Shown one piece after another: positions 1,022 to 40,198 of a stretch of 42,394 nt of DNA. A program made the position numbers and the translations under genes. How positions within the stretch are numbered: the stretch's first letter is position 1; each line of letters begins with the position of its first letter. The stretch is from NCBI GenBank assembly GCA_031365045.1, contig JANLXK010000283.1, forward strand, positions 1 through 42,394, read 5' to 3'. The notes below the pieces were generated by a model. That model searched no databases. It had not been told where the DNA came from and saw only the letters and a program-made list of their open reading frames with translations. The stretch comes from Gemmatimonadota bacterium (GTDB taxonomy: Bacteria; Gemmatimonadota; Gemmatimonadetes; Gemmatimonadales; GWC2-71-9).

Positions 1022-1705
1022 ATGTTCGATGAAAAACTGACCCACTCAGATCGTCGCGGTTTCTTGACCAGGACCGCGGCCGGTGCTGCGATGGCCGCAC
1101 TCGCCACCCTCCCCGCCTGGGTCGAGGCGGAAGCCCCGATGCAGGCACCCGAGATCGACGCGAACAAGATGTGGCTCCGTGGTGTGGACTCGAAGTGCCG
1201 CCAATTCTTCGAGACCGCGAAGATGGACACGATGATCCCGTTCCATCACGTGGCGAACTACTTCGCCGCCTGGCGCGCCACGCCGAGGATCAAGCCCGGT
1301 GACGTGATGGCGGTCGTGGGGATCTTCGGATTCGCCGTGCCGGCGCTGTTCGGCGACGCGATGTGGGAGAAGTACTCCTTCGGCAAGGCCACGAACTTGA
1401 CCGATGCCTCCACCGGCCAGCCCTACATCCGCAATCCATACCTGGCCCCGCGCAACGGGGAACTGTTCGGCAGCGACTCGGTAACGCCCGCGGCGCTCCA
1501 GGGCCTCGGCGCACGCATCATCCTCTGCAACAATGCCTTCACCCTGTTCGTGGCGATGTCCTCCGCGGCGACCAACCAGGCCCCTCCCGTCGTCCGCGCC
1601 GAGATGCTTCGGCACCTCGCCCCTGGAGTAACGCTCGTCCCGGCGATGGTGCAGGCGGTCGAGCAGGCGCAGCGGGCGGGACTCACCTATATGAAGAACT
1701 CGTGA
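1022..1705 (+). CDS. Tat-exported protein of unknown function (weak DsrE-like impression only)
   Basis: ATG 1022 lies 5 nt after a strong AGGAGG (1011-1016) that abuts the upstream stop. The N-terminus SDRRGFLTRTAAGAAMAALATLPAWVEA is a twin-arginine signal. Codon usage is coherent to the stop at 1703-1705. Confidence 0.6.
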   Translation: MFDEKLTHSDRRGFLTRTAAGAAMAALATLPAWVEAEAPMQAPEIDANKMWLRGVDSKCRQFFETAKMDTMIPFHHVANYFAAWRATPRIKPGDVMAVVGIFGFAVPALFGDAMWEKYSFGKATNLTDASTGQPYIRNPYLAPRNGELFGSDSVTPAALQGLGARIILCNNAFTLFVAMSSAATNQAPPVVRAEMLRHLAPGVTLVPAMVQAVEQAQRAGLTYMKNS

Positions 1706-1805
1706 GCGGTGAGCGGTAAGCAGTGAGCGGGGGCCCACGGTCGGGCCCCTTTCTCATACCTGCTACAGCCGCCATACTCTCTCCTGCGGCCCGCTCACCG
1801 CTCAC
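1702..1805. repeat. tandem-repeat-armed palindrome A: GTGAGCG x4 (1702-1729) / CGCTCAC x2 (1792-1805)
   Basis: Read directly from the sequence. The stop of the upstream gene (1703-1705) lies in the first unit. The spacer contains a small hairpin. Confidence 0.8.
1731..1748 (+). terminator. small GC hairpin (GGGCCC-acggtc-GGGCCC) followed by CCTTTCTC, inside element A
   Basis: 6-bp stem, 6-nt loop and a T-rich trail, 26 nt after the stop at 1705. Confidence 0.45.
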
Positions 1806-1818
1806 CTTTGGGCCTTCC

Positions 1819-2928
1819 GTGACCGAACCCCTGGACCGGATCCGCAGCTTGGACGCCTTTCGCGGCCTCACGATCGCGGGGATGATCCTGGTCAACAACC
1901 CGGGGTCGTGGGGGGCCATCTATTCACCGCTGGAGCACGCCGCCTGGAACGGATGGACCCCCACCGACCTGATCTTCCCCTTCTTCGTCTTCATCATGGG
2001 GATCTCGGCGGCTCTGGTGATCCCGCGTCGGCTCGAAGCGGGGATGTCAAAGGGGAAGGTCGCCCGGCAGGTGGTGGTGCGGGCGACCCTCCTTTTCCTG
2101 ATCGGTCTCGCGCTCAACGGCTTCCCGCACTACGACCTCGCCACCATCCGGGTGATGGGGGTCCTTCAGCGGCTGGCGCTCTGCTATCTCGCCACCGGCG
2201 TCCTCGTGACTTTCACCACGCCGAGGGCCTGGCGGCACTGGGTCGCGGCATTGCTCCTCGGGTACTGGCTGGCGCTCCTCCTCATTCCCGTGCCGGGATA
2301 CGGCGCCGGCGTGCTCGCGCCCGACGGCAACCTGCCCCAGTATGTCGACGCCCTCGTCTTCGGTGCTCATCGTTGGCTGCCAGCGTGGGACCCGGAAGGG
2401 ATCCTCAGTACCTTCCCCGCCGTCGCGAGCTGTCTCCTCGGCGCGCTCACCTGGCGCTGGTTGCGGGAGGAGCGGAGCGTGGCGGAGCTGGCGCTGGGAT
2501 TGATGCTGGGCGGGGACGCGCTGCTGCTGCTGGGCTGGGCCTGGAGCTGGGTCTTCCCGATCAACAAGAATCTCTGGAGCAGCTCCTACGTGCTCTGGAC
2601 CGCCGGGATGGCGATGCTGGTGCTGGCCGCGCTGATGTGGGCGATGGATGGACTGGGAAAGGTGCGGTGGGCGCGGCCGCTGGAGCACTATGGCACCAAT
2701 GCGCTGGCGGTCTTCGTGCTGTCGGGACTCATCGGACGGCTGATCACGCTGATCAAGATCGGGGAGGGCGCGCAGGCGACCACCCTCAAGGGGTGGATCT
2801 TCAACAACTTCTTCCTGTCGTGGGCGAGCGAAGTGAACGCGTCGCTGGCCTTCGCGGTCGCGGTAGTGCTGCTCTTCTGGGGAGTGGCGTGGGGGATGTG
2901 GCGGAAGGGGTGGTTGGTACGGCTGTGA
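1819..2928 (+). CDS. membrane acyltransferase, heparan-alpha-glucosaminide N-acetyltransferase-like (DUF5009/DUF1624 family)
   Basis: RIRSLDAFRGLTIAGMILVNNPGSWG...WNGWTPTDLIFPFFVFIMG is the characteristic N-terminus of this family, followed by many TM helices. I start at GTG 1819, after the repeat hairpin. The track start at 1723 lies inside the repeat element. Confidence 0.75.
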   Translation: MTEPLDRIRSLDAFRGLTIAGMILVNNPGSWGAIYSPLEHAAWNGWTPTDLIFPFFVFIMGISAALVIPRRLEAGMSKGKVARQVVVRATLLFLIGLALNGFPHYDLATIRVMGVLQRLALCYLATGVLVTFTTPRAWRHWVAALLLGYWLALLLIPVPGYGAGVLAPDGNLPQYVDALVFGAHRWLPAWDPEGILSTFPAVASCLLGALTWRWLREERSVAELALGLMLGGDALLLLGWAWSWVFPINKNLWSSSYVLWTAGMAMLVLAALMWAMDGLGKVRWARPLEHYGTNALAVFVLSGLIGRLITLIKIGEGAQATTLKGWIFNNFFLSWASEVNASLAFAVAVVLLFWGVAWGMWRKGWLVRL

Positions 2929-3020
2929 GGAGTGAGGAGTGAGGAGTAAGGAGTAAGGACTGGGAAGTGAGAGGGGGTGCAGGTATCTCCACTTCTTACT
3001 CCTCACTTCTAACTTCTCAC
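2925..3020. repeat. tandem-repeat-armed palindrome B: GTGAGGA/GTAAGGA-type heptamers x7 (2925-2973) / TCCTCAC-type x5 (2986-3020)
   Basis: The arms are reverse complements apart from a few mismatches or wobbles. The element spans exactly from the stop of the + gene (2926-2928) to the stop of udk (3017-3019). It is a likely bidirectional terminator. Confidence 0.85.
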
Positions 3021-3649
3021 TGTCGCCGCCGGCGGAGCTCGTCCCGCACGCGCGCCTGGATCATCTCGACCCCGATCACGTTGTGCCCCCCTTCGGGGAT
3101 GATCACGTCGGCGAAGCGCTTGCTCGGCTCGACGAACTCCAGGTGCATTGGCCGGACGGTGGTGAGGTACTGGGTGATGATCGACTCGACCGAGCGCCCC
3201 CGCTCGGCGATGTCGCGTTGCATCCGGCGGATGAAGCGGACGTCGTCGGCCACGTCGACGAAGATCTTGATGTCGAAGAGGCGGCGGAGCCGCGGGTCGA
3301 CGAAGAGCAGGATCCCGTCGACCAGGATCACGTCCCGCGGCTCGACCCGGACGGTCGCCTCGGCGCGGGTATGGCGGGCGAAATCGTAGGTCGGCTTGTC
3401 GATCGCGACCCCGCTCGCCAGCGACTGCAGATGGGCGATGAGCAGGTCGTTGTCGAGGGCATTGGGGTGGTCGAAGTTGACCTTGGCCCGGTCCTCGAGC
3501 GGCAGGGCGTGGAGATCCTTGTAGTAGGCGTCCTGATCCATGAAAGCAGCGTCGACGCCGCCGAGGGCGCCGAGGATGGCGCGGGCAACGGTGGTCTTGC
3601 CCGAGCCGGAACCGCCGACCAGTCCGATGATCAATGGTTTCGATACCAT
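3017..3649 (-). CDS. udk: uridine kinase
   Basis: P-loop GLVGGSGSGKTT at the N-terminus. Full-length similarity pattern to Udk (NFDHPNALD, VILVDGIL, RRMQRDIAERGR). Confidence 0.9.
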   Translation of the reverse strand: MVSKPLIIGLVGGSGSGKTTVARAILGALGGVDAAFMDQDAYYKDLHALPLEDRAKVNFDHPNALDNDLLIAHLQSLASGVAIDKPTYDFARHTRAEATVRVEPRDVILVDGILLFVDPRLRRLFDIKIFVDVADDVRFIRRMQRDIAERGRSVESIITQYLTTVRPMHLEFVEPSKRFADVIIPEGGHNVIGVEMIQARVRDELRRRRQ

Positions 3650-3665: not shown

Positions 3666-3803
3666 GGTAGGAAGGTAGGAAGGTAGGAAGGTAGGAAGGT
3701 AGGAAGGTAGGAAGGTAGGAGGGTAGGAGGGTAGGATGGTATGAGGGCACGCTCTCGGGCCGGGGGCACCCCTCCTACCTTCTTACCCTCCTACCATCCT
3801 ACC
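3666..3803. repeat. tandem-repeat-armed palindrome C: GGTAGGAA octamers x10 (six perfect, 3666-3745) / CTCCTACC-type x4 (3772-3803)
   Basis: Counted directly. It fills nearly all of the divergent intergenic region between udk (start 3649) and the Rieske oxygenase gene (start 3812). Confidence 0.9.
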
Positions 3804-3811
3804 TTTAGTCG

Positions 3812-4936
3812 ATGCAGCGCCCCGCCACTCTCCCCGCGTTCAGCCCCGCCGACCTTGAGGTCGTCCCGGTCACCCGATCGGACACGATCCCGTCGAGCTG
3901 GTATACCGACCCCGCCTTCCATCAGGTGGATCGGGATGCGGTCTTCGCCCAGAGCTGGCAGAACGTCGGCGCCGCCGACCAGGTGCGAGAGCCGGGCCAG
4001 TTCATTGTAGGCACCGTGGCCGACAACCCGGTGATCGTGGTGCGCGGGCAGGGGGGGGAGCTCCGCGCCTTCTATAACGTGTGCAAGCACCGGGGCGGCC
4101 CCCTGGCGCTCTGCGACGGCCAGGCCAAGTCGCTCCGCTGTCAGTATCACGGGTGGACCTATCTTCTCGACGGTTCCCTCCGTGGCGTCCCCAAGATGGA
4201 CCGGAGCGAGCTTTTCGATACGAAGGACTTCGGCCTCGTCCCGATCAAGGTCGACCTCTGGGAGGGCCAGGTCTTCGTGCACCTCGGCGCCGACCCGCGG
4301 CCGGTGGCGGAGACCTTCCAGGGGATCGTCGAGCGGATCGCGCCGACCAAGGTGGGTGGGCTCACGTTCGCCCGGCGGGTGGACTACGAGGTCGGGTGCA
4401 ACTGGAAGGTGTACGTCGACAATTTCCTCGAAGGGTATCACGTCCCCTTCGTGCACCCGGAGCTCGTGTCGCTCTTCGAGTATTCGCAGTACCGGACCGA
4501 GGTCTTCGACCGGTACAACCTGCAGTGGACCCCGCTCGACGCGAGCACGCCGTCACCGTACAGCGGGAACGGGGCCGAGGATGGGGGTGGCCAGGCCTTC
4601 TATTACTGGGTGTGGCCCAACTTCATGCTCAACATCCTTCCGGGTCGGCTCCAGACCAATGTCGTCGAGCCGCTCGGGCCGGACCGGTGCCGCATCGTGT
4701 TCCGGTACTTCTACAAGGACATCGAGAGCGCCGAAGGGAAGGCGCGGCTCGAGGCCGATCACGCGTACAGTGAGAAGGTGCAGGTCGAGGACCGGGAGAT
4801 CTGCGAACGGGTGCAGGCGGGGCTGGGGAGCAGGGCGTACGACAAGGGGAGGTTCAGCCCGGAGATGGAAGCGGGCGTCTGGCATTTCCAGTCGCTGCTC
4901 AAGGGGGCTTATGCCGAATTAGTCGGTGGTCGGTAG
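3812..4936 (+). CDS. Rieske [2Fe-2S] non-haem iron oxygenase, alpha-subunit type
   Basis: Rieske motif CKHRGGPL...CQYHGWTY. C-terminal catalytic domain with NWKVYVDNFLEGYHVPFVHP (His ligands). Confidence 0.85.
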   Translation: MQRPATLPAFSPADLEVVPVTRSDTIPSSWYTDPAFHQVDRDAVFAQSWQNVGAADQVREPGQFIVGTVADNPVIVVRGQGGELRAFYNVCKHRGGPLALCDGQAKSLRCQYHGWTYLLDGSLRGVPKMDRSELFDTKDFGLVPIKVDLWEGQVFVHLGADPRPVAETFQGIVERIAPTKVGGLTFARRVDYEVGCNWKVYVDNFLEGYHVPFVHPELVSLFEYSQYRTEVFDRYNLQWTPLDASTPSPYSGNGAEDGGGQAFYYWVWPNFMLNILPGRLQTNVVEPLGPDRCRIVFRYFYKDIESAEGKARLEADHAYSEKVQVEDREICERVQAGLGSRAYDKGRFSPEMEAGVWHFQSLLKGAYAELVGGR

Positions 4937-5010
4937 TCGATCGCTAATGTTGGGTAAGTTGGAGTGCGTCTCTCGTCTCTCGTCTCTCGTCTCTCGTGCT
5001 CTCGTGCTCT
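4922..5010. repeat. single-arm tandem repeats D: GTCGGTN x3 (4922-4942), then CGTCTCT x4 plus CGTGCTCT x2 (4967-5010)
   Basis: Counted directly. No reverse-complement arm is nearby. The oxygenase stop TAG (4934-4936) lies inside the first repeat. Confidence 0.8.
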
Positions 5011-5012
5011 CA

Positions 5013-6192: not shown

Positions 6193-7617
6193 GTGCATCG
6201 CAAGTACCTTCTCGCGCTCTCCCTGGCCGGGCTCGCCGCCTGCGCCGTCAATCCCGTCACCGGCAGGAACGAACTGTCCCTGGTCTCCGAGTCCCAGGAG
6301 ATCCAGATGGGACAGGACGGGAAGGCCCAAGTCCAGCGCTCTATCGGCATCTATGCCGATCCGACGCTGAACGCGTATCTCGCGAGCCTCGGGACCCGCA
6401 TCGCCGCCACTACGGAGCGTCCCAATCTCCCGTGGAGCTTCCAGATCGCCGACCAGCCGGTGGTCAACGCCTTCGCCTTGCCGGGAGGCCCGGTCTTCCT
6501 CGCTCGCGGGATCCTGGGCTACTTCAACAGCGAGGCGGAGCTGATCTCGGTGCTCGGCCACGAGATGGGACACATCACTGCCCGTCACTCGGCCCAGCAG
6601 ATGACCCGCTCCCAGCTCGCCGGCCTCGGGCTCGGCATCGCCTCGGCGGTCAACTCCCGCGTGGCGAGTCTCGCCGGGGTCGCGGAGCAGGGGCTGGGGC
6701 TCCTCTTCCTCAAGTACAGTCGCACCGACGAGTCGCAGGCCGACGCCCTCGGTTTCCGGTACGGACTCAAGAATGGGTGGGACATGCGCGAAGGGACCAA
6801 GATGTTCAACACCCTCTCGCGCGTGAGCGGCGACCCGAGCTCGCGCCTGCCGGAGTGGCAGTCGAGCCACCCGGAGCCGGAAGGACGGGCGGCGCACAAT
6901 GACGAACGGGTGCTCGCCGCCGAAGCGACCGGGGTGAACTTCGACGCACTGACGGTGGATCGTAATGGTTACCTCCGCCGGATCGACGGGCTCGTCTTCG
7001 GAGCGGATCCGCGCGAAGGGTACTTCGAGGGCACGGTGTTCTATCATCCGGTCCTTCGCCTCAAGTTCGCCTTCCCCGCCGGATGGAAGACCCAGAACAG
7101 CGCCGAATCGGTGGCCGGGATGAGCTCCGCGAAGGACGTGATCGTGGTCTTCTCGGGCGCGGGACAGGAGTCTCCCCAGGCGACCGGACAGAAGTTCGCC
7201 GCGCAGACCGGGCTCACCCCGGGACAGGGACAGGGGCTCACCATCAATGGCCTGACCGCCTACACCCTCCCGTTCCAGGCGCAGACCGATCAGGGAACGG
7301 TCGCGGGGCGGGCCACTTGGATCTCGCTCGATGGGACGAGCTATCAGGTGCTCGGCTACGGCGCCGTGGCGAACGCGAGCGCCAATGACCAGATCATCCT
7401 CGGCGTGGCACGGACATTCACGCGGCTCACCGATCAGTCCAAGATCGATGTGCTGCCAAAGCGGGTGCACATCATCACGCTCCGCACCGCACAGACCATC
7501 GTCGAAGTGGGGCGCGCCAACGGCAATACACTGCCCGAGGCAGAACTTGCGAACGTGAACGGGGTGCGCCGCGACCAGGTACTGCCGGCCGGGACGCTGG
7601 TGAAGATCGTGAAGTAA
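6193..7617 (+). CDS. M48 family zinc metalloprotease (lipoprotein)
   Basis: HEMGHITARH (HExxH) followed by the ESQAD motif. GTG 6193 gives VHRKYLLALSLAGLAACA (lipobox); the alternative start is ATG 6112. Confidence 0.85.
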   Translation: MHRKYLLALSLAGLAACAVNPVTGRNELSLVSESQEIQMGQDGKAQVQRSIGIYADPTLNAYLASLGTRIAATTERPNLPWSFQIADQPVVNAFALPGGPVFLARGILGYFNSEAELISVLGHEMGHITARHSAQQMTRSQLAGLGLGIASAVNSRVASLAGVAEQGLGLLFLKYSRTDESQADALGFRYGLKNGWDMREGTKMFNTLSRVSGDPSSRLPEWQSSHPEPEGRAAHNDERVLAAEATGVNFDALTVDRNGYLRRIDGLVFGADPREGYFEGTVFYHPVLRLKFAFPAGWKTQNSAESVAGMSSAKDVIVVFSGAGQESPQATGQKFAAQTGLTPGQGQGLTINGLTAYTLPFQAQTDQGTVAGRATWISLDGTSYQVLGYGAVANASANDQIILGVARTFTRLTDQSKIDVLPKRVHIITLRTAQTIVEVGRANGNTLPEAELANVNGVRRDQVLPAGTLVKIVK

Positions 7618-7634
7618 CCCCTTACCTTGGGGAC

Positions 7635-9842: not shown

Positions 9843-9870
9843 CGGGCCCCTCGCGAAAGCGAGGGGCCCG
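9843..9870 (+). terminator. intrinsic-terminator-like hairpin after the small lipoprotein gene
   Basis: Perfect 12-bp stem CGGGCCCCTCGC / GCGAGGGGCCCG with a GAAA tetraloop, followed by TTCG. It lies 25 nt after the stop at 9818. Confidence 0.7.
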
Positions 9871-9910
9871 TTCGACATCCTACCTCACCCCTCGACCGCC
9901 CCTCCCCCGA

Positions 9911-9934
9911 CCCCTCCCCCTGTCGGGGGAGGGG
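9911..9934 (-). terminator. hairpin after the epimerase gene
   Basis: 10-bp stem CCCCTCCCCC / GGGGGAGGGG with a 4-nt loop, 4 nt beyond the stop (9939-9941) of the minus-strand gene. Confidence 0.55.
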
Positions 9935-14721: not shown

Positions 14722-14903
14722 GACGGCAACCCCCACGGCGGTGAGTTAGTGCGTGCTGTCGCTTGGAGCGTGACGGCTGGGACCGCAAGGTCCCGTGTTC
14801 AAGGGAGGATGGCCAAGATTGGAAATACCGAGGGTGCTGTCAAGCGCGAGAAATAATCCACATCACAAAGCGTGTAGTGGGAATGAGTTGTGGGGTTTGT
14901 CCA

Positions 14904-14935
14904 CGGTCGGGCGGTCGGGCGGCCGGGCGGTCGGC
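14904..14935. repeat. single-arm tandem octamer repeat E: CGGTCGGG-type x4
   Basis: cggtcggg cggtcggg cggccggg cggtcggc. It sits in the long region upstream of the sigma-factor gene. No complementary arm was found. Confidence 0.8.
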
Positions 14936-14940
14936 CAATG

Positions 14941-14985
14941 CCCATATTGTAAGTTGTTCATTCACAATAACTTACATCTGTGGTG
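14941..14985 (-). promoter_or_regulatory. AT-rich island with inverted repeat; candidate promoter/operator of the sigma-factor gene
   Basis: By eye, one of the most AT-rich stretches in the window. Inverted repeat TGTAAGTT-N13-AACTTACA (14948-14976). The minus strand reads ...TACAAT..., a near-consensus -10, but no good -35 is present. Confidence 0.35.
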
Positions 14986-15030
14986 GAGATGTGGGGTCGG
15001 CGGCAGGATGTGGAGGGAAATGTGGAAGCT

Positions 15031-16778: not shown

Positions 16779-17324
16779 TCACCACGTCACATCGCCGGCC
16801 CCATCCCGATGATTGGCCTGCCGCGCGAGCGTGAAGAGCAGATCGGAGAGCCGGTTGAGATAGACCAGGAAGAGCTCGGGCACCTCATGCTTGTGCGACA
16901 GCGCGATGACGCTCCGTTCGGCGCGGCGGCACACGGTGCGGGCGAGGTGGAGCGCGGCCGCCTTGGGGGTGCCGGCGGGGAGGACGAAGGCCTTGAGGGG
17001 AGGGAGCTCCTCGTCGGCCGCGTCCATCAACTTCTCGAACAGGGTGACGCGCTTCCTGGACAGGTCGGCCTTCTCCAGCGCCTTCTTCACCTTCTCCGGA
17101 TGCGGGGTGGCGAGGTGGCCACCGAGGGAGAAGAGGTCGCGCTGGATCGACTCGAGGAGGTCGTCAGAGAAGTGCACCGGCTGGGTGGCGCGCGCGACGC
17201 CGATGGCGCTGTTCAGCTCATCGATGTCGCCGTACGCCTGCACGCGCACGTGGTCCTTGGGGACCCGTCCGCCGCCGAAGAGGCCGGTCTCGCCGGCGTC
17301 GCCGGTCTTGGTGTAGATCTTCAT
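16779..17324 (-). CDS. ATP:cob(I)alamin adenosyltransferase, PduO type
   Basis: MKIYTKTGDAGETGLFGG N-terminus at ATG 17324. The conserved AR motif falls within LHLARTVCRRAER. Confidence 0.88.
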   Translation of the reverse strand: MKIYTKTGDAGETGLFGGGRVPKDHVRVQAYGDIDELNSAIGVARATQPVHFSDDLLESIQRDLFSLGGHLATPHPEKVKKALEKADLSRKRVTLFEKLMDAADEELPPLKAFVLPAGTPKAAALHLARTVCRRAERSVIALSHKHEVPELFLVYLNRLSDLLFTLARQANHRDGAGDVTW

Positions 17325-17333
17325 GGTGGAAAT

Positions 17334-17420
17334 GTAAGGAGTAAGGAGTGAGGTGTGAGGAGGTTGCCAGTCGGGACGAGTCCGTTCCTGACTCCTCACT
17401 CCTCACTCCTCACTTCTCAC
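17334..17420. repeat. tandem-repeat-armed palindrome F: GTAAGGA/GTGAGGA x4 (17334-17361) / TCCTCAC x4 (17393-17420)
   Basis: Same heptamer family as element B. It lies between two co-directional minus-strand genes. The stop of the upstream gene (17417-17419) is in the last unit. Confidence 0.85.
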
Positions 17421-17851
17421 GCTCGCAGGTGATCCGCCCGCCACTGGGTGACCAGGTGCTTGATCGCCTTCTTGCTGGTGATCCCTTCGTTGAGCACGCG
17501 GGCCGCGAGCGCCGGGAGTTCCTCATCCGAGGCGAAGCGGAGCCCCACGAGCTGCTGGCGGGTGAACTCGCCGAGCCGGGGACGCAGATCGGGCGGGAGG
17601 AGGCGGCCGAGTCGCATCCGCTCTTCGAGGCGGATGACGCGGTCCTGCACCGCCAGCGGAAAGATGCGGAGATACCAGGCCATCATTACGAAGGCGACCG
17701 CCATCACGATGCCCCAGAGATTCACGAGCGTCGGCGTGCGGATGGCCCAGACGACCCGGAGGATGAAGTTCACCAGCAGGGCCCCCGCGAGGAAATAGTG
17801 ATAGCCGGGGATGATCCGCGTGTGGTGGTCTGCGCTCTGTGGTTCGGTCAT
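17417..17851 (-). CDS. small membrane protein (DUF6526-like impression)
   Basis: 144 aa. HHTRIIPGYHYF followed by two or three TM helices and a soluble C-terminal tail. Its stop lies inside repeat element F. Confidence 0.55.
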   Translation of the reverse strand: MTEPQSADHHTRIIPGYHYFLAGALLVNFILRVVWAIRTPTLVNLWGIVMAVAFVMMAWYLRIFPLAVQDRVIRLEERMRLGRLLPPDLRPRLGEFTRQQLVGLRFASDEELPALAARVLNEGITSKKAIKHLVTQWRADHLRA

Positions 17852-17882
17852 CGCTGCTCCTTGGGGTCGGTCGTGAGGGCCG

Positions 17883-18299
17883 TCAACGCCATGCCGTGAG
17901 GATCGCGCCCATCGCCATCAGGTACACCAGCTGGTAGCCGGCATCGATGACGAAGGTCATGAGTTTCTTCTCGGAGAACATGTTCGCCGTGAGCCCGATG
18001 GTCGCCGCGAAGCCGAGCCAAATCAGGGCGCCAAGCTTGAGGCCTCCCTGCCAGCGGATGATCCCCGTGAGATGGATCAAGATAGACAGGACGGCGGCGA
18101 TCACGAGATAGGCCACGAAGGAGACGCCGTAGGCGCGTCCCATCGACGTCTTCATCTTGTCGATATCTGCCGGTTGGTATCCGTGCGCCTGCACCCAGAG
18201 CTTTCCGAAGAGGATCGGGTTGTACCAGAGGGCGCCGATCGCGAAGGTCGCGAGGGCCGAGACGAGGATCGCGAGGTAGTTGAACTCCACACCGTACAT
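17883..18299 (-). CDS. DUF1761 family membrane protein
   Basis: N-terminus NYLAILVSALATFAIGALWYNPILFGKLW is typical of DUF1761. Four TM helices. Confidence 0.7.
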   Translation of the reverse strand: MYGVEFNYLAILVSALATFAIGALWYNPILFGKLWVQAHGYQPADIDKMKTSMGRAYGVSFVAYLVIAAVLSILIHLTGIIRWQGGLKLGALIWLGFAATIGLTANMFSEKKLMTFVIDAGYQLVYLMAMGAILTAWR

Positions 18300-18319
18300 G
18301 AGACCTCCGAGGGTGGTCG

Positions 18320-23583: not shown

Positions 23584-25184
23584 CAGGGGGTGGTGAACCG
23601 CACGCCGGTCCAGTGCTGACCGTTGAAGATCGCCGGCACCCGCCATCCGGTGAGGTCGGGCGAGAGGGCCCAGAGATCCACCGGCGCCCAGAGGAAGACC
23701 CAGGGCGCGAGATCGTGCGCGCGGGCATCCGCCTGCCGCGCGAGGCGGGCCTGCAGGGCGGTGTCGCTGGTCGTCCGCATCTGGGTCACCACCTGGTCGA
23801 GCTCCGGGTCGCTCAGGAAGGCGCGATTGCCGCCGGTGCCGCGGTTGCTCGAGTGGAAGAGCGGGAAGAGGAACCCCTCCGCGTCGGGGTAGTCGGCATA
23901 CCAGTCGGTGAGGAAGAGGTCGGCCTCGCCCTTGGCGCTCGCGGCCCGGGCGGTGGGGGCGTCGCGTTCGAGGATGGTGACGCGGATCCCCGCTTCGGCC
24001 CAGCTCTGCTGCAGCGACACCGCCAGGCGGGCATATTCGCTCCGGCCGGTGCGCCAGAGCTCGAGGTCGATCCCGTTGGGGTGGCCCGCCTGGGTGAGGA
24101 GCGCCTTGGCTTTGGCCGGGTCGAACGGATAGGGCGTGAGGGTCGAGTCATACCCCGCGAGCCCCGGCGGGAGGGCGCCACCGGTGCGTACCCCGCGGCC
24201 ACCCATCACGGTGCGGAGGATCGTGGCGCCGTCGGTGGCGTAGTTGAGGGCCTGGCGCACCCGGACGTCCTGCAACGGACCGCGGGTGGTGTTGATCGCG
24301 ACGTAGAGTTGCCGGATCGCGGCGCGGCGCTGGAGTTCGGTGGGGTGGGACTGCTCCCACCGCGCCGTCTCCGAGAAGGGCACTTCCGCCACGTGCAGCA
24401 GTCCCGCCTCGTACTCGGCCGCGATCGTCAGCGCTTCCGGGATGATCCGCACCCGGATCGACTCGGCCTCCGCCTGCTCGACGCCCCAGTACTCGGGGTT
24501 CCGGGCGAAGCGCATCTCGCTGCCTCGTTCCCAGGCCGCGAAGCGCCAAGGCCCGCTCCCGACCGGATGGTCGGCGAAGTCGGCCGGCAGGGGCGCGGGC
24601 GCCACTGCCGCGACCGGCATCGCGATGAGCTTGGGGAAGACGCTGAGCGGTGCATCGATCCGGACCACAAGGGTGGTGTCGTCGGCGACGTGGATCCCGG
24701 GGACCGACGTGGCGGAGCCGGCCACGAACGCCTTGGCGCCCGCGATGGGGAGGAGGGGCCACGCGCGGCCGCCACCGGTCTTCGGGTCGAGCGCCCGGAG
24801 CCACGATGCCGCGACGTCTTCCGCGGTGAGCGTCGAGCCGTCGTGGAACTTGATCCCCGACCGAAGGTGGAAGGTGTAGGTCGTGCCGGCGGCGTCGATG
24901 TCCCAGCGTGAGGCGAGCCCGGGGATCAGGTGGCCATCCTGGTCGAATTGGGTGAGCCCGTCGTAAAGCAGCGCGACCATCTCTCCCGACGGGACGTCGG
25001 TCGAGAGGGCGGGATCGAGCGAGCGGGGTTCGTTGGTGAGGTAGTACTGGATCGTCGACGAATGCGACCGACCGCCGCAGGCGGACAGGCCTGCCCCGAG
25101 TGCGAGCGAGGGGAGGAGGGTGGCGAGGAGGAGTCGGCGCACGGGGATCCGGGGGTAAAGGGGGTTGGGGAGGGGTGAGCGCAT
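23583..25184 (-). CDS. ABC transporter substrate-binding protein, family 5 (peptide/nickel)
   Basis: 533 aa with a lipoprotein-type signal (LGAGLSACGG). SBP_bac_5 pattern (YTFHLRSGIKFHDGSTLTAEDV, ADYPDAEGFLFPLF). Confidence 0.85.
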   Translation of the reverse strand: MRSPLPNPLYPRIPVRRLLLATLLPSLALGAGLSACGGRSHSSTIQYYLTNEPRSLDPALSTDVPSGEMVALLYDGLTQFDQDGHLIPGLASRWDIDAAGTTYTFHLRSGIKFHDGSTLTAEDVAASWLRALDPKTGGGRAWPLLPIAGAKAFVAGSATSVPGIHVADDTTLVVRIDAPLSVFPKLIAMPVAAVAPAPLPADFADHPVGSGPWRFAAWERGSEMRFARNPEYWGVEQAEAESIRVRIIPEALTIAAEYEAGLLHVAEVPFSETARWEQSHPTELQRRAAIRQLYVAINTTRGPLQDVRVRQALNYATDGATILRTVMGGRGVRTGGALPPGLAGYDSTLTPYPFDPAKAKALLTQAGHPNGIDLELWRTGRSEYARLAVSLQQSWAEAGIRVTILERDAPTARAASAKGEADLFLTDWYADYPDAEGFLFPLFHSSNRGTGGNRAFLSDPELDQVVTQMRTTSDTALQARLARQADARAHDLAPWVFLWAPVDLWALSPDLTGWRVPAIFNGQHWTGVRFTTP

Positions 25185-25290
25185 CCTTAGATACCCCCGG
25201 TCCGCACTATCAATTAATTTGACAGTCGGCCGCTAAGTCCAAGAAGCTAGGCCATTTGTCCACCCTGCGTCAACGTAGCCTGGGAGGCCC

Positions 25291-27444
25291 GTGCCACCTT
25301 CATTCCCCCTGATCCAGCGACTCGCCATCCTCGGCGTGATCGGGGTGGCCGGCAGCGTGGGGGTCCGGGAGGGGGCGGCACAGGCGCGGCCGAGCGAGAA
25401 TCAGACGGCCTCCGGGCTGGTGATACGCGGGCTCGGGTTCAAGGGGAACAAGGCGTATACCGACGAGGTGCTCGTCACGACGATCGCGACGACGGCCTCG
25501 TCGGCGTTCGCGCGCTTGTGGATCTTCCGGTGGATGGGACTCGGCGAGAAGCGGCAGCTCGATGAACTCGACTTCCGCCGCGACGTGCTGCGCCTCACCG
25601 CGTATTACCGCGAGGGCGGGTACCTCGACGTCCGCGTGGATACCCTTGTAAAGCGGGCTGCCAAAGACGTCTGGATCACCTTCCGGATCACGGAAGGGAA
25701 GCCTGTCGTGGTCGACTCCTTCGATATCCAGGGGTTCGAAGCGTTCGCGCCCCGCACCCGGAAGACGCTGCTGCAGGACCTCCCGCTCGAAGTGGGGGAT
25801 CCCTTCGATCGTCGGGCAATGCTCGCCACCGCCGACACGCTGCTCGCGCGCTTGCGCGACGTGGGCCGGCCTTCGGCGCAATTGTTCCGGAGCTTCCAGG
25901 TGGACCGCGCCCGCCGGCGGGCCGTGATCGGCTTCGAGGTCGTGCCCGGCCCGGTCGCGATCGTCGGCGCGGCGAACATCACCGGGGTGATCCAGGTGGA
26001 CAGCGGCGTGGTGCGGCGGCTGCTGGTGGCCCAGCCGGGCCAGCAGTTCTCGCAACGGGACCTGTACGAGAGTCAGCGGATCCTGTACCAGACCGAACTC
26101 TTCCGCTTCGCGGCGGTCGGGATCGACACGCTGCACTGGAGTCCCGGTGATACCATCGTGCCGATCGACGTGAGCGTCAGCGAGGCGAAGTTCCGGCGGG
26201 TGCGCGCGGGGGTGGGATACGGGACCAACGACTGCTTCCGGGGCGGGGCGGGCTGGACCGCGCGCAACTGGTTCGGCGGCGGCCGCCAGCTCGACCTCTC
26301 GGCGCGGGCCAGCAAGATCGGCGTGGGCGCGCCTGCCGACTGGGGGCTCGAGCGGGGGATCTGTCCGGAGCTCAAGCGCGACCCGATCGGCTCCGGCCTG
26401 CTCAACTACAACACCACACTGAGCCTCAGGCATCCCGGGTTCTTCTCGCCCTTCAACACCCAGACGACCGCACTCTTCGGTGAGCGGCGGTCGGAGTGGC
26501 AGGTGTACCGGCGTGAGGAGGTCGGTGGCAGCTTCGCGGTGCACCGGGAGACGCCGAAGCGGATCCCGCTCACCGCGACCTACCGGCTCGCGTGGGGCCA
26601 GACCACGGCCCCGGCCATCACCTTCTGCGCCTATTTCAACGCCTGCACCGGTGCTGACATCGACGCACTCCGGTCGCGTGGGCGGCTGGCCACCCTGTCC
26701 GCATTCGTCCGCGTCCCCCGCGCCAATGATCCGCTCGACCCCACCCGCGGGCACAACTTCAGCTTCGAGGCCGTCTGGAGCAGTCGCCTCTTCGGGTCGG
26801 ATCGGCTCACCCAATTCACGCGGGTGCAGTCCGACCTCGCTTGGTACCGCCCGCTCACCCGGAGTGTGACGCTCGCCTGGCGCATCCGTGGCGGGATGCT
26901 CTGGTCGCCGCGGGCCTCGTTCGACAGCGGGAGCGTTTCGTTCGTCCCGCCGGATCAGCGGTTCTACGTCGGCGGGCCCAACGACGTGCGCGGGTTCGAC
27001 CGCAACGAGCTCGGCCCCGTGGTGTACGTGGTGCCCGGCACCTTCGTCACTGCGGGCGGCGAAGTGACCGACACGGGGCAGGTGCAGTCGTACCCCTCCG
27101 GCGGCAACACCTTCGCCGTGGCCAACATCGAGCTCCGTGTCCCGTCGCCGATCTGGTCGTCGCGAGTGCGGTTCGCCTTCTTCACGGACGCCGGCACGCT
27201 CTTCCAGCGGGACAAGGTCGCGCTCACGCCCGTGAAGCTCCGGGTGACCCCTGGCGCCGGGATCCGGATCGCCACCCCGCTCGGTCCGGCCCGCGTCGAC
27301 GTCGGCTACAATCCCTACGCCCGCGCAGAGGGCCCGCTCTACAAGGTCGAGACGAACGGCGACCTCACGCTGGTGCGCGATGCCTTCTCCGCCCCGCGCG
27401 GGAGCCGCTACACCTTCCACATCTCCGTGGGGCAGGCGTTCTGA
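25291..27444 (+). CDS. tamA: Omp85/BamA-family outer membrane protein, TamA-like (POTRA repeats plus beta-barrel)
   Basis: POTRA-like repeats (IRGLGFKGNKAYTDEVL, FDIQGFEAF) and a barrel ending ...YTFHISVGQAF. GTG 25291 follows GGGAGG. Its stop overlaps the TamB start. Confidence 0.8.
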   Translation: MPPSFPLIQRLAILGVIGVAGSVGVREGAAQARPSENQTASGLVIRGLGFKGNKAYTDEVLVTTIATTASSAFARLWIFRWMGLGEKRQLDELDFRRDVLRLTAYYREGGYLDVRVDTLVKRAAKDVWITFRITEGKPVVVDSFDIQGFEAFAPRTRKTLLQDLPLEVGDPFDRRAMLATADTLLARLRDVGRPSAQLFRSFQVDRARRRAVIGFEVVPGPVAIVGAANITGVIQVDSGVVRRLLVAQPGQQFSQRDLYESQRILYQTELFRFAAVGIDTLHWSPGDTIVPIDVSVSEAKFRRVRAGVGYGTNDCFRGGAGWTARNWFGGGRQLDLSARASKIGVGAPADWGLERGICPELKRDPIGSGLLNYNTTLSLRHPGFFSPFNTQTTALFGERRSEWQVYRREEVGGSFAVHRETPKRIPLTATYRLAWGQTTAPAITFCAYFNACTGADIDALRSRGRLATLSAFVRVPRANDPLDPTRGHNFSFEAVWSSRLFGSDRLTQFTRVQSDLAWYRPLTRSVTLAWRIRGGMLWSPRASFDSGSVSFVPPDQRFYVGGPNDVRGFDRNELGPVVYVVPGTFVTAGGEVTDTGQVQSYPSGGNTFAVANIELRVPSPIWSSRVRFAFFTDAGTLFQRDKVALTPVKLRVTPGAGIRIATPLGPARVDVGYNPYARAEGPLYKVETNGDLTLVRDAFSAPRGSRYTFHISVGQAF

Positions 27445-30400
27445 TGCGGCGCCTCCCGCTCGCCTTCGTGAAGGCGCTCACGATCGTCCTCCTCGGCCTC
27501 TTCGGGACCGTGGCCGGATCGATCGCGGCGGTCTTCCTCACGCCGGCGGGACGCGGGCTTGCGGGTCGCACCCTCTCCGAACAGCTCGACCAGCTGGTGC
27601 AAGGGGATGTCCAGGTCGGCGCGGTGGGAGGCCCGCTCTGGAGCGGACTCGACGTCGACCGGCTCGTGGTGCGCGACCCCGCGGGGAACGTGGTCCTCGA
27701 AGCGGGCCATCTCGGCGTGCACTACCACCTGTTCGATCTCCTTGCCGGCCGGTTCATCCTGACCGAGGTGACCGTGGACGGCCTTCGCCTGGTGCTCGAA
27801 AAGCACCGGGACGGCCACTGGAACGTCCAACGCATCCTCCGTCCGGCGCAACCCGGCGCGGTCGCGGGCCCGACCCGTCTGATCCGACTGCAGGATCTGA
27901 CCATCCGGAACGGCGAGGTCCGGCTGTACCAGCCATGGAACCCGCCGGACTCCGCCCGTACGCCGAGGGCCGCTGCGGCCGCGCTCGCGGAGGAACGTCG
28001 TCACGTGGGCCGGGACATCGAGGTGGGTCCGGAGGGGTACCGCAAACGCACGCTCTTCACCGATCTCGGGGGCCGGTTCCAGAAGCTGCAGATCTCGTCG
28101 CCCGACCACGCGCCGCTCCACGCCGAGTTCGATTCGCTCGCGGTGCGCGTGAGCGACCCGGTGCTGGATCTCCGCGGCGCGGTCGGTTCCGCCGAACTCA
28201 AGGGGGAGACCCTGACGCTCGATCTGAGCCGGGCGTCACTTCCCGCTTCGCACATGGCGGTGAAGGGGTCCGTCAGCCTCGGCCACGGCGGACCGTTCTT
28301 CAAGCTCGCCGTCGTCGCCTCACAGGTGGCACTCCGCGATCTGCGGGGGTTCGTCGCGGGGCTGCCCGACTTCGCCGGCTCTGCCCAGGCGACGCTCCAC
28401 AGCCACTCCACCGGGCGGCTGACCACGGTCGTCGAGAACCTCGATGTCCGAGGGAGGCAGGGACGCGCCACCGGGCGGCTGACGGCCGTGGCGGGTGGGA
28501 ACAAGGAGCTCGAGTTGAATGGGCTCGATCTGCTGCTCTTCGGTGCCGACCCGCAGGCGATGAGCGGTTGGGTGGACAGCATCCCGCTCCACGGCACACT
28601 CGACGGCCACGTCCTCGCCAACGGCCCGCTCAGCGGGTTGGTGGTGGACGCGGACGTGATCTACCGGGATTCCCGCGTCGCCGGCACGCCGCCCAACCAT
28701 CTGAGCATCCTCGGTCGCCTCCAACTCGGCGGCGCGGCCGGGATGGTGTTCGACACCCTGACGATGCGGGAGTCGGATCTCGATCTCGCGACCGTCCGCG
28801 TGCTGGTCCCCTCGAATCCGCTGATGGGGCGCGCCGCGATCGAGGGGACGCTGGTCGGCCCCTGGCGCGCCTTCACCTGGCGCGGCACCGCCGTCCACCG
28901 GGACGGTGACCGCCCCGTGAGCGTGATGCGGGGGACGGTGTTCCTCGACACGCGGGGCGCGGTCTCGGCATTCGACGCCGACGTCGGCCTTACCCCATTG
29001 GTGCTCGAGGGACTCGCCGGCACCTGGCCGGACCTGCCGGTCGGCGGAAGCCTGCGCGGCACCGTCCACGCCCGCGGCACGATGCAGCGATTCGACCTCG
29101 ATGCCGACTTGCATGGTGCGCCGGGGCACTTCGAAGGGAGCGCGATCGTCAGCTCGGAGGGAGAAGCGTGGGGGTTCGACTCGGTCGACGTGCGCTTCGA
29201 CAGCCTCGACCTCGTCGCCTTCGGTTACCCGACCCTGCACACCCAGCTGCTGGGCACGATCGCCGGCGGCGGGCGCATCGACCCGGCGCAACCTTCGCTC
29301 GGCCACCTGCTCATCACCCTCGGGGCCGGTTGGATCCGTGAGGTGCCGATCGACTCGGCCCGATTCGCGATCGTCAGCGACCCGACGACCCTCGTGATCG
29401 ACACGGCCTTCGTACGCTGGCCCAGCGGGCGCCTCGAAGCGGCAGGCCGCATCGCGCGGACGGCCCCGTCGCAGGGCGTGATCGCCCTGCAGGGGGAGGC
29501 TGCCGATCTCGGCGTGTTCGACTCCCTCGCCAACGTCCTGCTTCACCCCACCGTCGACACGACCCTCGCCTCCCGTCCTCTCGGCGGGCAGGCGGAGTTC
29601 ACCGCGACGGTGGGCGGCGCGCTCGATTCGCTCACGATCGACACCCGCGTCAGCGCCCGCGAAGTGGCGTGGCAACGCTTCCGTCTCCCCGCCGCCCGCT
29701 CGACGCTGGCCTACGGTGGCGGGACCAGCGGCGCCATCCGCTTCGCGGCCACGATCGACACGGCCACCTGGGGTGACTGGAGCATCGGCGCGACCACCCT
29801 CGGCGCGGAAGGTCGTCTCGATTCGCTCCGGTGGAATGTGGCCGGTCTGGTCGGCCCCACGGATTCCGTCGTGGCAGGAGGCCGCTGGCACCAATCTGGG
29901 GATACCCTCGCCGTGGGGATCGACTCGCTGTTCGCGGCGCTCACGGCGCACACCTGGCGGCTGACGGGGCCCGTGACCGTGATCAACAATGCCGGCGCCT
30001 GGCAGGTCGATTCGCTGGTCCTCGCGGCGGCGGATGGCTCGGGGGAGCTCCGATTCACCGGCGTGCTGCCCAGCGAGCGGCCGGGGGTGGCGACGCTCTC
30101 CGCGGTGGGCCTCGATCTGCGCGACGTGATGGGGTTGCTGCAGCGCGACACCGTCGGGACCCTCGGGCGCGGGGCGGCCGATATCACCATTGGCGGCACC
30201 GCGGCGGCGCCGCTCCTGCGGGGGACCTTCTCGCTTTCCGAGGGCGGCTTCCGCGAATTCCGGGCCCCCTATCTGCAGGGCGCCTTCGACTACGGTGCCC
30301 GTCAGTTGCAGGCCACGGTGCTCCTCTGGCGGACCGGGAAGCAAGCGCTGTCCATCTCGGTGGACAGTCTGCCCATCGACCTCGCCTTCCAGAGCGTGCG

Positions 30401-38918: not shown

Positions 38919-39610
38919 TCGTCCCGGAGCTTGGTCCCTCGCTCGGAAGGCTCACCGCGCTTCCGGGGGCTCCGGTCGGCGCGCCGCCCGCGCCGCGGCC
39001 TGAGCTCGCCGATCTCCGCCTCGCGCTGGTGGGACGGATCTTCGAGCTGGCCGCCGCGGCCCGCGGCGCGGTCGATGGCGACGGTGCCGCTGAGATCCTC
39101 GCACCCGCGCGCCTCCGCCTGGAATGGGAGCGTGCGGCGGCGCAGGTCGCAACGCGCACGCTCGAACGGATCGAGAGGGCCCTCGCTCTCGCCGCACGCA
39201 GCACCGCGCTTCCGGCGCGCCGTGTCCGGCGGTCAGCGCCCACCCCCGCGGAGCTCGCGCTGATCAAGGCCCGCCTGCACGGCAGCGGCGTCCCCTTCGT
39301 CGACGGACTGACGGCGCTCGATACCGCCGAACCCGGCTCCGACGGATGGCGTGCGGCGCTCCTCGCTTCGGCGCGGCGCCTGGAGGGAAGCTGGTTGGCG
39401 CTGGAGCAGCGGGCGCGGGCCGAGGAGACCGCGTGGCAGGAAGAAGGTGCGCGTCTCGCCGCCTGGCGCCCCTCACCGTGGCCCCGCCGGATCCTCGCGC
39501 TCCTCTTCCTCGTCTCCTTCGTGTACGCCGGCCTGGTGCTCGGCGGATTCCTCCCGGTGCCCCCTGGCGCCGCACCGATCACCCAGTGGTGGTGGAGCCA
39601 CGGCCAATGA
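38915..39610 (+). CDS. hypothetical Ala/Arg-rich protein with C-terminal membrane anchor
   Basis: GTG 38915 overlaps the CYTH stop (GTGA). The protein looks helical and Ala/Arg/Leu-rich and ends with the TM segment ILALLFLVSFVYAGLVLGGF. The stop overlaps the acpS start. Confidence 0.5.
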   Translation: MIVPELGPSLGRLTALPGAPVGAPPAPRPELADLRLALVGRIFELAAAARGAVDGDGAAEILAPARLRLEWERAAAQVATRTLERIERALALAARSTALPARRVRRSAPTPAELALIKARLHGSGVPFVDGLTALDTAEPGSDGWRAALLASARRLEGSWLALEQRARAEETAWQEEGARLAAWRPSPWPRRILALLFLVSFVYAGLVLGGFLPVPPGAAPITQWWWSHGQ

Positions 39611-39996
39611 ACGTCCTCGGCGTCGGGATCGACCTGGTCGACATCCATCGGGTGGTCGAGATGCTCGACCGTCGCGAGGAGCAGGCGCTGCATAAGCTGC
39701 TCACGCCGGCCGAGCGCGAGTTCGTGCTGGCCCAGCCGGTGCCGGCTCGTCACTTCGCGGCGCGCATCGCCGCGAAGGAGGCGGTCTACAAGGCGCTCCA
39801 ATCCCTTCCCGATGCCCGCGGGGTCGGGTGGCAGGAGATCGAGGTGCTTCGGAGCGTCGAGGGGCGGCCGAGCGTGAGGCTGCACGGGCTCGCCGCGGAG
39901 CTCGACCGCACCCAGGGACCGCTGATCATCGAGCTCTCGCTGAGCCACTCGGAGATGACCGCCGGTGCGGTCGCGGTGGTCGGGGTAGCGCGGTAG
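39607..39996 (+). CDS. acpS: holo-[acyl-carrier-protein] synthase
   Basis: MNVLGVGIDLVDIHRV and FAARIAAKEAVYKAL signatures. 129 aa. ATGA overlap with the upstream gene. Confidence 0.9.
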   Translation: MNVLGVGIDLVDIHRVVEMLDRREEQALHKLLTPAEREFVLAQPVPARHFAARIAAKEAVYKALQSLPDARGVGWQEIEVLRSVEGRPSVRLHGLAAELDRTQGPLIIELSLSHSEMTAGAVAVVGVAR

Positions 39997-40094
39997 ACGT
40001 TTCGTCGATCAGGCTGGTGCGGGTGGCTTGACACGCTCGAGCGCTTCCCACCGGCTGGTGCAGGTCCCGCAACAGAAGATGGGTCGGAAGGGGG

Positions 40095-40198
40095 GAGGTG
40101 AGACGTGAGGAGACAAGAGGAGACAAAAGGAGACGATGAGACCAGAACTCCGAGACTTCGGTCGTCTCCTCCCGTCTCCTCCCGCCTCCTCCCGTCTC
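40095..40198. repeat. tandem-repeat-armed palindrome H: NNNAGGAGAC decamers x5 (40095-40142) / GTCTCCTCCC x3.5 (40164-40198)
   Basis: Read directly. It lies between acpS and the FTR1 fusion gene on the same strand. It is a likely terminator or insulator. Confidence 0.85.

Follow-up and report, generated by a model that had tools for sequence, protein, structure and literature searches.

What kind of DNA element keeps its shape while its sequence is free to change? The question is raised by a 42,394-nt stretch of a Gemmatimonadota bacterium (contig JANLXK010000283.1 of assembly GCA_031365045.1, forward strand), hereafter the window, which is a 68% G+C chromosomal region carrying housekeeping genes of a diderm bacterium, among them those for Omp85/TamB and a sigma-54 activator as well as udk and a sigma-70 factor. 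A first-pass annotation had noted long palindromes between its genes whose two arms are short tandem repeats. We find that these palindromes are a genuine, non-random and widespread class of element, of a kind noticed twice before, and that their units and centres turn over far more quickly than the genes on either side, with the arms staying complementary. The explanation that we favour, to which we give about even credence, is that they are simple-sequence palindromes kept as gene-boundary stem-loops, built and rebuilt by slippage and templating, and that they probably act as terminator or insulator hairpins.

Tandem-repeat palindromes in the window

Tandem Repeats Finder recovered both arms of all seven elements of the first-pass annotation (A, B, C, F, G, H and J) where they had been placed, an inverted-repeat search paired the arms over 29–55 nt with 78–96% complementarity, and the regions were also read directly. 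The flanking gene orientations recorded there proved correct, public gene calls included. The window contains 16 arrays that have a period of 7 or 8 and no fewer than 2.8 copies, compared with a mean of 1.33 and a maximum of 4 in 30 dinucleotide-preserving shuffles. Predicted RNA folding gave z-scores of −3.5 to −9.4 for the plus strand and −4.3 to −11.2 for the minus strand, with 0–2 of 200 shuffles folding as well; the expectation that the elements would fold better than dinucleotide-shuffled controls thus holds for all of them and on both strands.

Element A (1702–1806), between co-directional genes, pairs 4.1 copies of GTGAGCG (1702–1730) with 2.3 copies of CGCTCAC (1791–1806) around a centre that contains a GC hairpin (1730–1749) followed by TTTCT; the stop codon TGA of the upstream 227-aa gene (1703–1705) lies inside the first unit, and the next gene starts with GTG at 1819. 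Element B (2925–3021), between convergent genes, consists of 6.7 copies of GTGAGGA/GTAAGGA (2925–2971), an 18-nt centre and 4.6 copies of TCCTCAC-type units (2990–3021), and both the TGA of the plus-strand gene (2926–2928) and the minus-strand udk stop codon (3017–3019) fall in the outermost units. Element C (3666–3805) lies between the divergent udk and Rieske oxygenase genes, where it occupies 140 of the 162 nt between the start codons at 3649 and 3812 and ends 7 nt before the Rieske ATG (3812); 9.5 copies of GGTAGGAA (3666–3741) are followed by a GC-rich centre and 4.2 copies of the CCTCCTAC type (3770–3803). Element F (17334–17420; arms 17334–17362 and 17386–17420) separates the co-directional minus-strand genes for DUF6526 and cobalamin adenosyltransferase (CobA), with the DUF6526 stop codon (17417–17419) in the outermost unit and the CobA ATG (17322–17324) 9 nt past the other arm. 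Element G (21021–21133), between convergent response-regulator and S13 peptidase genes, has GGTAGGAA-type arms (21022–21054 and 21102–21133) that run into a central GC stem, giving 55-nt arms of 84% complementarity with a 3-nt loop; the stop codon TAG (21024–21026) is in the first unit.

The remaining two elements both stand between co-directional genes. Element H (40095–40198) precedes a gene for a cytochrome c-FTR1 iron permease, whose ATG is at 40266, and lies in its leader; it pairs (N)GAGGAGAC decamers (40107–40134) with 3.6 copies of GTCTCCTCCC (40163–40198). The five copies first assigned to its left arm can be counted only with degenerate 8-nt units, whereas clean decamers number 2.8. 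Element J (22562–22663, minus strand) is the weakest case (73–85% matches), with GC-rich octamer arms of the GCGCACGG type (22562–22589 and 22622–22663). It spans from the permease stop codon (22663–22665) into the region encoding the signal peptide of the S13 peptidase, and was therefore only partly right to be called intergenic, since its second arm encodes part of that peptide. All seven elements are real, but the list missed two sites: element D (4920–5012, plus strand), in which three copies of TAGTCGG sit on the Rieske stop codon (4934–4936) and six copies of CGTCTCT end 1 nt before the ATG at 5013, and a 17-nt remnant at 7610–7627 that is discussed below. The first-pass annotation noted shared units for B and F and for C and G and took others as unrelated; there are indeed several types, but A, B, F and part of H have a GTRAG core in common, and the F site of one relative carries the GTGAGCG unit of A.

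Placement and polarity at gene boundaries

On the sense strand, the G-rich array begins on or beside the upstream stop codon, and only a few bases separate the end of the C-rich array from the start codon that follows. Stop codons fall within the outermost unit at A, B (on both sides), D, F and G, and start codons lie 1–16 nt past the C-rich arm at C, D and F. With duplicates removed and relatives added, 42 of 44 elements are G-first; for those not ascertained through a search with GGTAGGAA the count is 30 of 32 (binomial p = 2.5e-7, for elements that are not phylogenetically independent). A census of stop-codon overlaps, 31 purine-sense against 2 pyrimidine-sense, was discounted as circular, because C-rich arrays cannot contain stop codons.

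Several simple readings of the purine-rich arm were rejected. Stop codons in all frames are not a separate signal, being largely automatic in purine-rich units with one T (three of the four T+RR triplets are stops), and units such as GGTATTG have no stop codons. A Shine–Dalgarno or CsrA (GGA) role does not fit the many units without GGA or GGAGG (GTGAGCG, GGTATTG, AAGTGCG, GTCCGAA). The orientation would suit a Chi site, yet Chi is one fixed sequence per species while the units here vary freely.

Turnover between close relatives

Relatives were recovered through exact-protein look-ups (those with the udk, TrxR-like and 185-aa proteins gave no matches) and form a comparative series of 100%, about 96–99%, 88% and 83% relatedness. 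Contigs of Logan SRR20217195 are 100% identical to the window, scaffold_619 of ENA ERZ28573519 (S619) and the contigs K141 and k141b of ERZ27315198 come from independent assemblies and are about 96–99% identical to it, and L147–149 and L150–152 are more distant syntenic relatives. Seven segments fall below 60% identity between the window and S619, namely A, B, C (in copy number only), D, the M48 peptidase/MFS junction, 19545–19599 and G. All seven are gene junctions and six of them are at repeat elements; F is also flagged, at 66%. Mis-assembly is an unlikely source of these differences, since the k of the assemblies, 141, exceeds the length of the elements, synteny holds on both flanks and independent Logan contigs match the window at 100%.

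The replacements affect unit, centre and even period. At A and B the sequence 150–300 nt to either side is 99–100% identical between the window and S619; between these flanks S619 has four copies of GTGAGGR and four of CCCTYAC with a new centre at A, in place of GTGAGCG/CGCTCAC, and four copies of GGTATTG with eight of CAATACC at B, in place of the GTGAGGA element. At G the octamer palindrome of the window (GGTAGGAA) corresponds to a GTRAGGG heptamer palindrome in S619, K141 and L147, and both flanking stop codons are TAG in the window and TGA in the other three. Change in copy number by slippage is seen directly at C, which in S619 is identical bar four fewer units, and in a Nitrospirota pair described below (4 versus 3 units). 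The M48/MFS junction is a presence/absence polymorphism: S619 and k141b carry a full palindrome of five GTRAGGR and four CCYTCAC units, amounting to 72 extra nt, where the window keeps the 17-nt plus-strand remnant, or empty site, GTGAAGTAA CCCCTTACC (7610–7627). Element D is likewise hypervariable between strains.

Two further variable sites are of a different make. The segment at 19545–19599 is a divergent intergenic region in which S619 and K141 are 35 nt longer, including 2.6 copies of TCTGAGCG, with no clear palindrome. Upstream of the sigma-70 gene, 14722–15030 is strongly conserved in relatives, including a TTGACA box, except for one slot between conserved blocks that holds a lineage-specific octamer array (CCGACCGC, AGCGCCCA or degenerate); the window has a single array of CCGACCGC (14904–14934, minus strand) on the gene-sense strand, without a partner arm.

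Pairing kept at occupied sites

Sites stay occupied across greater distances. The F junction (DUF6526/CobA) holds a heptamer palindrome in 9 of 9 relatives, built from GTGAGGA/TCCTCAC, GTRAGGG/CCCTYAC or GTGAGCG/CGCTCAC; homologues of DUF6526 with 83% identity carry Gemmatimonadota names. Both sides change in 6 of 21 pairs there (covariation score 0.229 versus 0.122 in shuffles, 0 of 500 of which reach it; slid controls give 0–1 pairs), on a hand-built alignment of the three innermost units in five related sequences. Element J is conserved between strains, and relatives carry GCGCGTGG and GCGCTCGG instead of GCGCACGG with pairing kept. The 3' junction of the epimerase gene is filled differently in three lineages, always from the stop codon onward: L147 has a palindrome of GTCCGAA units, L150 one of AAGTGCG units, and the window a hairpin of a C-run and a G-run. 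The last of these, at 9845–9921, has the opposite polarity, CTCCCCTCCCCC-GACA-GGGGGAGGGG, followed by 12-nt TCGGGGGAGGGG repeats, directly after the stop codon; its copy number is unlike that of S619, and a similar C-first hairpin is found at the G junction of L150. At the locus L060, a variant unit is mirrored in both arms. Because relatives keep the design while its sequence is rewritten, shape appears to matter. The description of the elements as conserved structure with free sequence is thus borne out at orthologous sites, by the palindromes and paired changes at F as much as by the unit and period swaps at A, B and G.

Much of this could nevertheless be a non-adaptive by-product, in which slippage and hairpin-templated mutation (quasipalindrome correction) make and destroy palindromes in unconstrained sequence, no function is served, and polarity and placement reflect only what selection on the neighbouring genes tolerates. 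Extreme turnover, the polymorphism at M48/MFS and the lack of a strand preference in folding are consistent with this, as are the differing unit arrays at almost every intergenic junction in relatives, among them single arrays and non-complementary pairs, and the arms that have drifted apart at some loci (57 of 76 positions complementary at L007). An excess of heptamer arrays in scattered bacterial lineages, among long repeats with units of 5–11 nt, is also reported to have been attributed to slippage of the polymerase (Mrazek 2007). The G-first polarity is, however, not what a neutral process predicts, nor is it that the F, G, J and epimerase junctions stay occupied by a strong hairpin over species-level divergence. 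Moreover, bacteria normally find long palindromes costly and fail to keep them stable, and their persistence at about 20% of junctions needs explaining. We regard a by-product as possible but doubtful.

Polarity and the pattern of variation bear on a further proposal, that the elements are scars of break repair: the centre would be cleaved, for example by SbcCD, a reiterative polymerase or a reverse transcriptase would add G-rich repeats to its 3' ends, and the ends would be rejoined, which would give the head-to-head arrangement seen in fused telomeres. In the 42 G-first elements the G-rich strand runs 5' to 3' toward the centre from both sides, the centre of F is its most variable part and its outer arms are conserved, and a unit length of 7–8 nt together with G-richness recalls telomeric repeats. 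We nonetheless rate such an origin as highly improbable, given that no candidate enzyme was identified, that the single arrays of Xanthomonas are oriented relative to the gene and not to a centre, that C has its perfect units outermost instead of beside the centre, and that many units are only weakly G-rich.

Recombination and probable exchange between loci

Identity between the window and S619 varies by block from 100% to 89%, and over 17100–27801 comparison with L138, L139 and L147 gives a mosaic in which blocks 100% identical between the window and S619 stand beside blocks of 87–93%. The response-regulator gene beside G is only 89% identical between the window and S619, which is closer there to the distant L147 (91%), and K141 is identical to S619 over 10.3 kb yet has the F allele of the more distant L147. 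The population is a recombination mosaic, which indicates frequent homologous recombination. Elements A and B lie in flanks of 99–100% identity, and they require local change to be very fast or, failing that, conversion patches to be very short. In S619 the centres of A and G, which are not orthologous, are identical at 22 of 30 positions (inner 22 nt: 14 matches, permutation P = 2e-4). This likeness points to copying between loci of one unit family; exchange between loci, which the first-pass annotation had excluded, is thus indicated by two centres of a single genome.

Exchange of this sort raises the question of whether the elements are non-autonomous and mobile, akin to MITEs (miniature transposable elements with inverted repeats) or to REPINs, hairpin-forming doublets of repetitive extragenic palindromes (REPs), with unit families such as GTRAGGR and GGTAGGAA copied into hairpin sites by a trans-acting enzyme and replacing the occupants. 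Such mobility would account for the like centres in S619, for whole elements swapped between near-identical flanks at A and B, for insertion or absence at M48/MFS, and for units shared by several loci per genome, one 24-mer being found in 53 loci of many phyla; palindromic microsatellites of Fusarium mitochondria have been proposed to be mobile (PMC7218506). However, neither terminal inverted repeats (TIRs) beyond the arrays nor target-site duplications nor a transposase or RAYT gene was found in the 42 kb and the related contigs, and most centres are unrelated between loci. The boundaries match stop and start codons and not a fixed element end, units shift gradually at one orthologous site, and copy number and arm length are free. 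Mobility of this kind is therefore unlikely in our judgement.

Comparison with known element classes

The elements were held not to be REPs or the bacterial interspersed mosaic elements (BIMEs) that contain them, nor MITEs, CRISPR arrays or ordinary terminators, and this stands. No Rfam family matched at gathering thresholds. Below threshold, generic long-hairpin matches to eukaryotic miRNA precursors were obtained (best 41 bits, threshold 96), and the single other match, to a snoRNA at 19412–19468, lies outside the elements. Terminators made of a hairpin and a U-tract are not enriched in the window (4 found versus 6.4 expected, and 4 versus 5.0); the one such site inside an element is at the centre of B, only A has a central GC stem plus TTTCT, and a canonical intrinsic terminator, with its short GC-rich stem of 5–20 bp, its loop of 3–8 nt and its U-tract, was accordingly rejected. 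A promoter scan of the window showed no enrichment, and a scan for tRNA and tmRNA genes found none. MITEs were rejected for want of direct repeats at the element borders and because the centres are unrelated in most pairs (one related pair, A and G of S619), and CRISPR because the units are contiguous 7–10-mers in inverted sets and not 24–48-nt direct repeats alternating with unique spacers of like size.

REPs, BIMEs and REPINs are abundant extragenic palindromes at 3' ends and between convergent genes, whose inverted doublets form long hairpins and of which a genome may hold several families. They contribute to mRNA 3'-end protection and termination, and the REP itself is an imperfect palindrome of 20–40 nt, conserved within its family and mobilized by a RAYT transposase. 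By analogy they would be the closest functional counterpart, but each arm here is a non-palindromic tandem array of free sequence and both arms are needed for a hairpin, so the elements do not belong to this class. No RAYT (Y1 transposase) was present among the Pfam hits of the window or the gene calls of related contigs (42–46 kb).

The architecture has precedents: inverted heptamer or octamer pairs have been described in two bacterial groups. In Xanthomonas, arrays of the heptamer GGGAATC form 70–75 convergent inverted pairs per genome, on opposite strands and able in principle to form stem-loops. Near a stop codon, 0–50 bp away or overlapping it, the coding strand carries the G-rich array; upstream of a start codon the non-coding strand does. 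The sites are conserved between species while their copy number and sequence vary, and no function was identified (Rehm 2015, PMC4692102). In Geobacter metallireducens, four classes of ‘global regulator binding sites’ consist of 3–5 tandem hepta- or octanucleotides (GTTGCTYN, TCTCCGTS and MTYCTGA among them). They are paired across opposite strands with variable spacing, number in the tens of intergenic sites and do not occur in the sister species; binding of IHF/HU was guessed without a test (Aklujkar 2009, PMC2700814). The window elements agree with these types in having paired arrays of at least 2–3 tandem units on opposite strands no more than about 200 nt apart, in their stop/start placement and their conserved sites of variable length and sequence. 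With the Xanthomonas arrays in particular they share tandem heptamers, inverted pairs and the placement rule. Xanthomonas, however, has one dominant, G-quadruplex-capable unit with four units preferred, whereas the window has several unrelated units of 7, 8 and 10 nt, most without G-runs; unlike in Xanthomonas, strains that are nearly identical can differ in unit and even in period at a site, and elements also occur between divergent genes. For G. metallireducens no polarity, relation to stop codons or strain comparison was reported, and the units are not G-rich.

Other repeats are less close. The arrays reported by Mrazek 2007 and the TAACTGA/STRR arrays beside start codons, with 169 direct sets versus 1 indirect set in ‘Maribeggiatoa’ (MacGregor 2015, PMC4679880), are intergenic heptamer arrays as in the window but mostly single, direct and without hairpin architecture. 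Palindromic intergenic microsatellites of Fusarium mitochondria are optional between sister species and tied to indels and hypervariability (Ponts 2020, PMC7218506), but they belong to AT-rich organelle genomes, are proposed to be mobile and have no described gene-boundary polarity. In the literature on such elements we found nothing that characterizes a mechanism.

The earlier proposals lead to a further possibility, that the elements are binding arrays for a nucleoid, regulatory or RNA-binding protein, or non-B DNA with a G-quadruplex in the G-rich arm. Iterated units of 7–8 nt are iteron-like, GG or GGG runs recur at regular intervals in arrays of GGTAGGAA and GTGAGGG, promoter or leader regions contain C and H, and IHF/HU (Geobacter) and G-quadruplexes (Xanthomonas GGGAATC) have been invoked before. 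Units are, however, free between sites and strains (GTGAGGA, GGTATTG, GTGAGCG, AAGTGCG, GTCCGAA, AGTGAAT), and therefore no single protein would read all of them; many lack a G-run, and the partner arm would compete with any quadruplex. A G-quadruplex of the GGGNATC type, which needs at least four regularly spaced runs of three or more G, was itself rejected, since G-runs do not exceed 2 in GTGAGGA, GGTAGGAA, GTGAGCG and GAGGAGACAA, and GTGAGGG occurs in some relatives only, although two-tetrad structures may form at these units. We consider binding or non-B DNA very unlikely to be the explanation.

Distribution in other bacteria

A search of a species-representative genome set with the 24-mer (GGTAGGAA)x3 found 53 loci. 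They come from Gemmatimonadota, Bacteroidota, Nitrospirota, Verrucomicrobiota, Planctomycetota, Myxococcota, Acidobacteriota, Desulfobacterota and others, the 24-mer is multi-copy in four metagenome-assembled genomes (MAGs) of Gemmatimonadota, and at many of the loci a complementary second arm follows downstream. The 936 kb of sequence examined contain 412 arrays, among which periods 7 (122) and 8 (125) dominate, and inverted pairs outnumber direct pairs by 37 to 6.

Array size and the chaining of different units differ widely among lineages. Very long arrays occur in other phyla: the locus L045 (7062–7310) has AGTACAG x20 / TACTTTG x13.6, L011 (6600–6990) has successive arrays of GGTAGGAA, GGTA, GGTCAAA and CTACTTG, and GGTAGGAA and GTTAAGAA units alternate in L018 (4390–4700). 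The Nitrospirota pair consists of orthologous GGTAGGAA elements (L045, 4541–4630; L050, 7739–7825) whose left arms have four and three units, respectively, and whose right arms are identical and decayed; the final six codons of the upstream gene (GRKVGR) and its TAG stop codon are part of the array.

Some palindromes harbour inserts. Two contigs of the Gemmatimonadales MAG JBDSIR, L015 (~965–1090, reverse) and L039 (7786–7911), each have a MITE-like element of about 125 nt with TIRs TGTCATCCCGAGC...GCTCGGGATGACA, which align with a score of 123 and lie in or beside the centres of GGTAGGAA palindromes. In L150–152 (L150, 10500–10620) the F palindrome has another, unlike insert at its centre, roughly 130 nt long and ending in GGAACCGTCCC/GGGACGGTTCC. 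Palindrome centres may thus be insertion targets.

A proposed boundary stem-loop model

In the explanation that we favour, two inverted arrays of a 7-, 8- or 10-nt unit around a short GC-rich centre would let the DNA, or the RNA of either strand, fold into a stem-loop of 30–55 bp. The arms would be held in step by intra-hairpin template switching, by selection for pairing, or by both, and the centres would at times be recopied from members of the same unit family, for example in the repair of a cleaved hairpin. The elements would persist since a strong stem-loop at a gene boundary is useful, with factor-independent stopping of transcription, protection of 3' ends and insulation between neighbours as likely roles. 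A need for such hairpins is suggested because canonical terminators are not enriched, every F junction is filled and the epimerase junction stays occupied. The G-first order could be advantageous in two ways: the C-rich arm would pair as soon as it is made and never be exposed as a Rho loading site, and units rich in G, A and T would give stop codons in all three frames at any copy number. Centre-directed synthesis is a third possible reason for the polarity.

Several observations weigh against this model. The terminator/insulator role, which is purely inferred, is its weakest point, because three elements (C, H and J) lie elsewhere than at 3' ends, another can be dispensed with and D is non-complementary. 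A terminator makes no sense between the divergent genes at C or in the leaders that contain H and J; the M48/MFS element is absent from the window; and D has the layout and polarity of the other elements with two arrays that do not pair, so that complementarity is not obligatory. There is no consistent U-tract across the elements. Folding energies of all elements on both strands show no consistent strand preference except at J, where the sense strand folds better in 3 of 3 orthologues and where alone RNA-strand-specific G–U pairing is consistent; mismatches in the orthologues of F are A:C as often as G:U. Finally, mosaic identity implies that some ‘replacements’ are imported alleles and not in-place change. 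Selection on the fold and slippage with templating had been put forward as alternatives: slippage is seen directly in the four units of C, whereas present data do not distinguish selection on the fold from templating of one arm by the other.

A bolder version seems to us unlikely. It holds that the elements are a sequence-free, structure-only boundary signal that is actively rebuilt, with G-rich arrays of 7–8 nt written 5' to 3' toward a central hairpin or break from both sides, in a geometry that may be that of head-to-head telomere fusions. Candidate routes would be hairpin cleavage with reiterative 3'-end synthesis, or repair templated by family members. If it were true, no DNA of conserved architecture would evolve faster than these intergenic hairpins in many bacterial phyla, and the long-noted excess of bacterial heptamers would be explained.

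Implications

The elements matter for assembly and annotation, since they fragment metagenome assemblies and mark strain forks, and their arrays provide the last codons and the stop codons of real genes. Public contigs stop in or beside arrays (L137, equivalent to 3706–4996 of the window; S619 near window position 40160; K141 280 nt past F), and one sample (ERZ27315198) yields two contigs with different F alleles. Gene callers run open reading frames on through the C-rich arms, so that CobA is called as 201 aa instead of 181; a sliding frame score failed to tell sense from antisense and was not used.

An excess of arrays has been noted since 2007 and their inverted pairing since 2009 and 2015, and neither has been explained. 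New here are several unit families, octamers and decamers among them, a cross-phylum spread, a polarity statistic and evidence at strain level. The comparative series joins strict G-first polarity, arm pairing kept under the rewriting of units, and turnover far above that of the flanking genes. What was a curiosity thereby becomes a set of testable hypotheses: a role as terminator or insulator, escape from Rho, and cleavage of the hairpin followed by repair.

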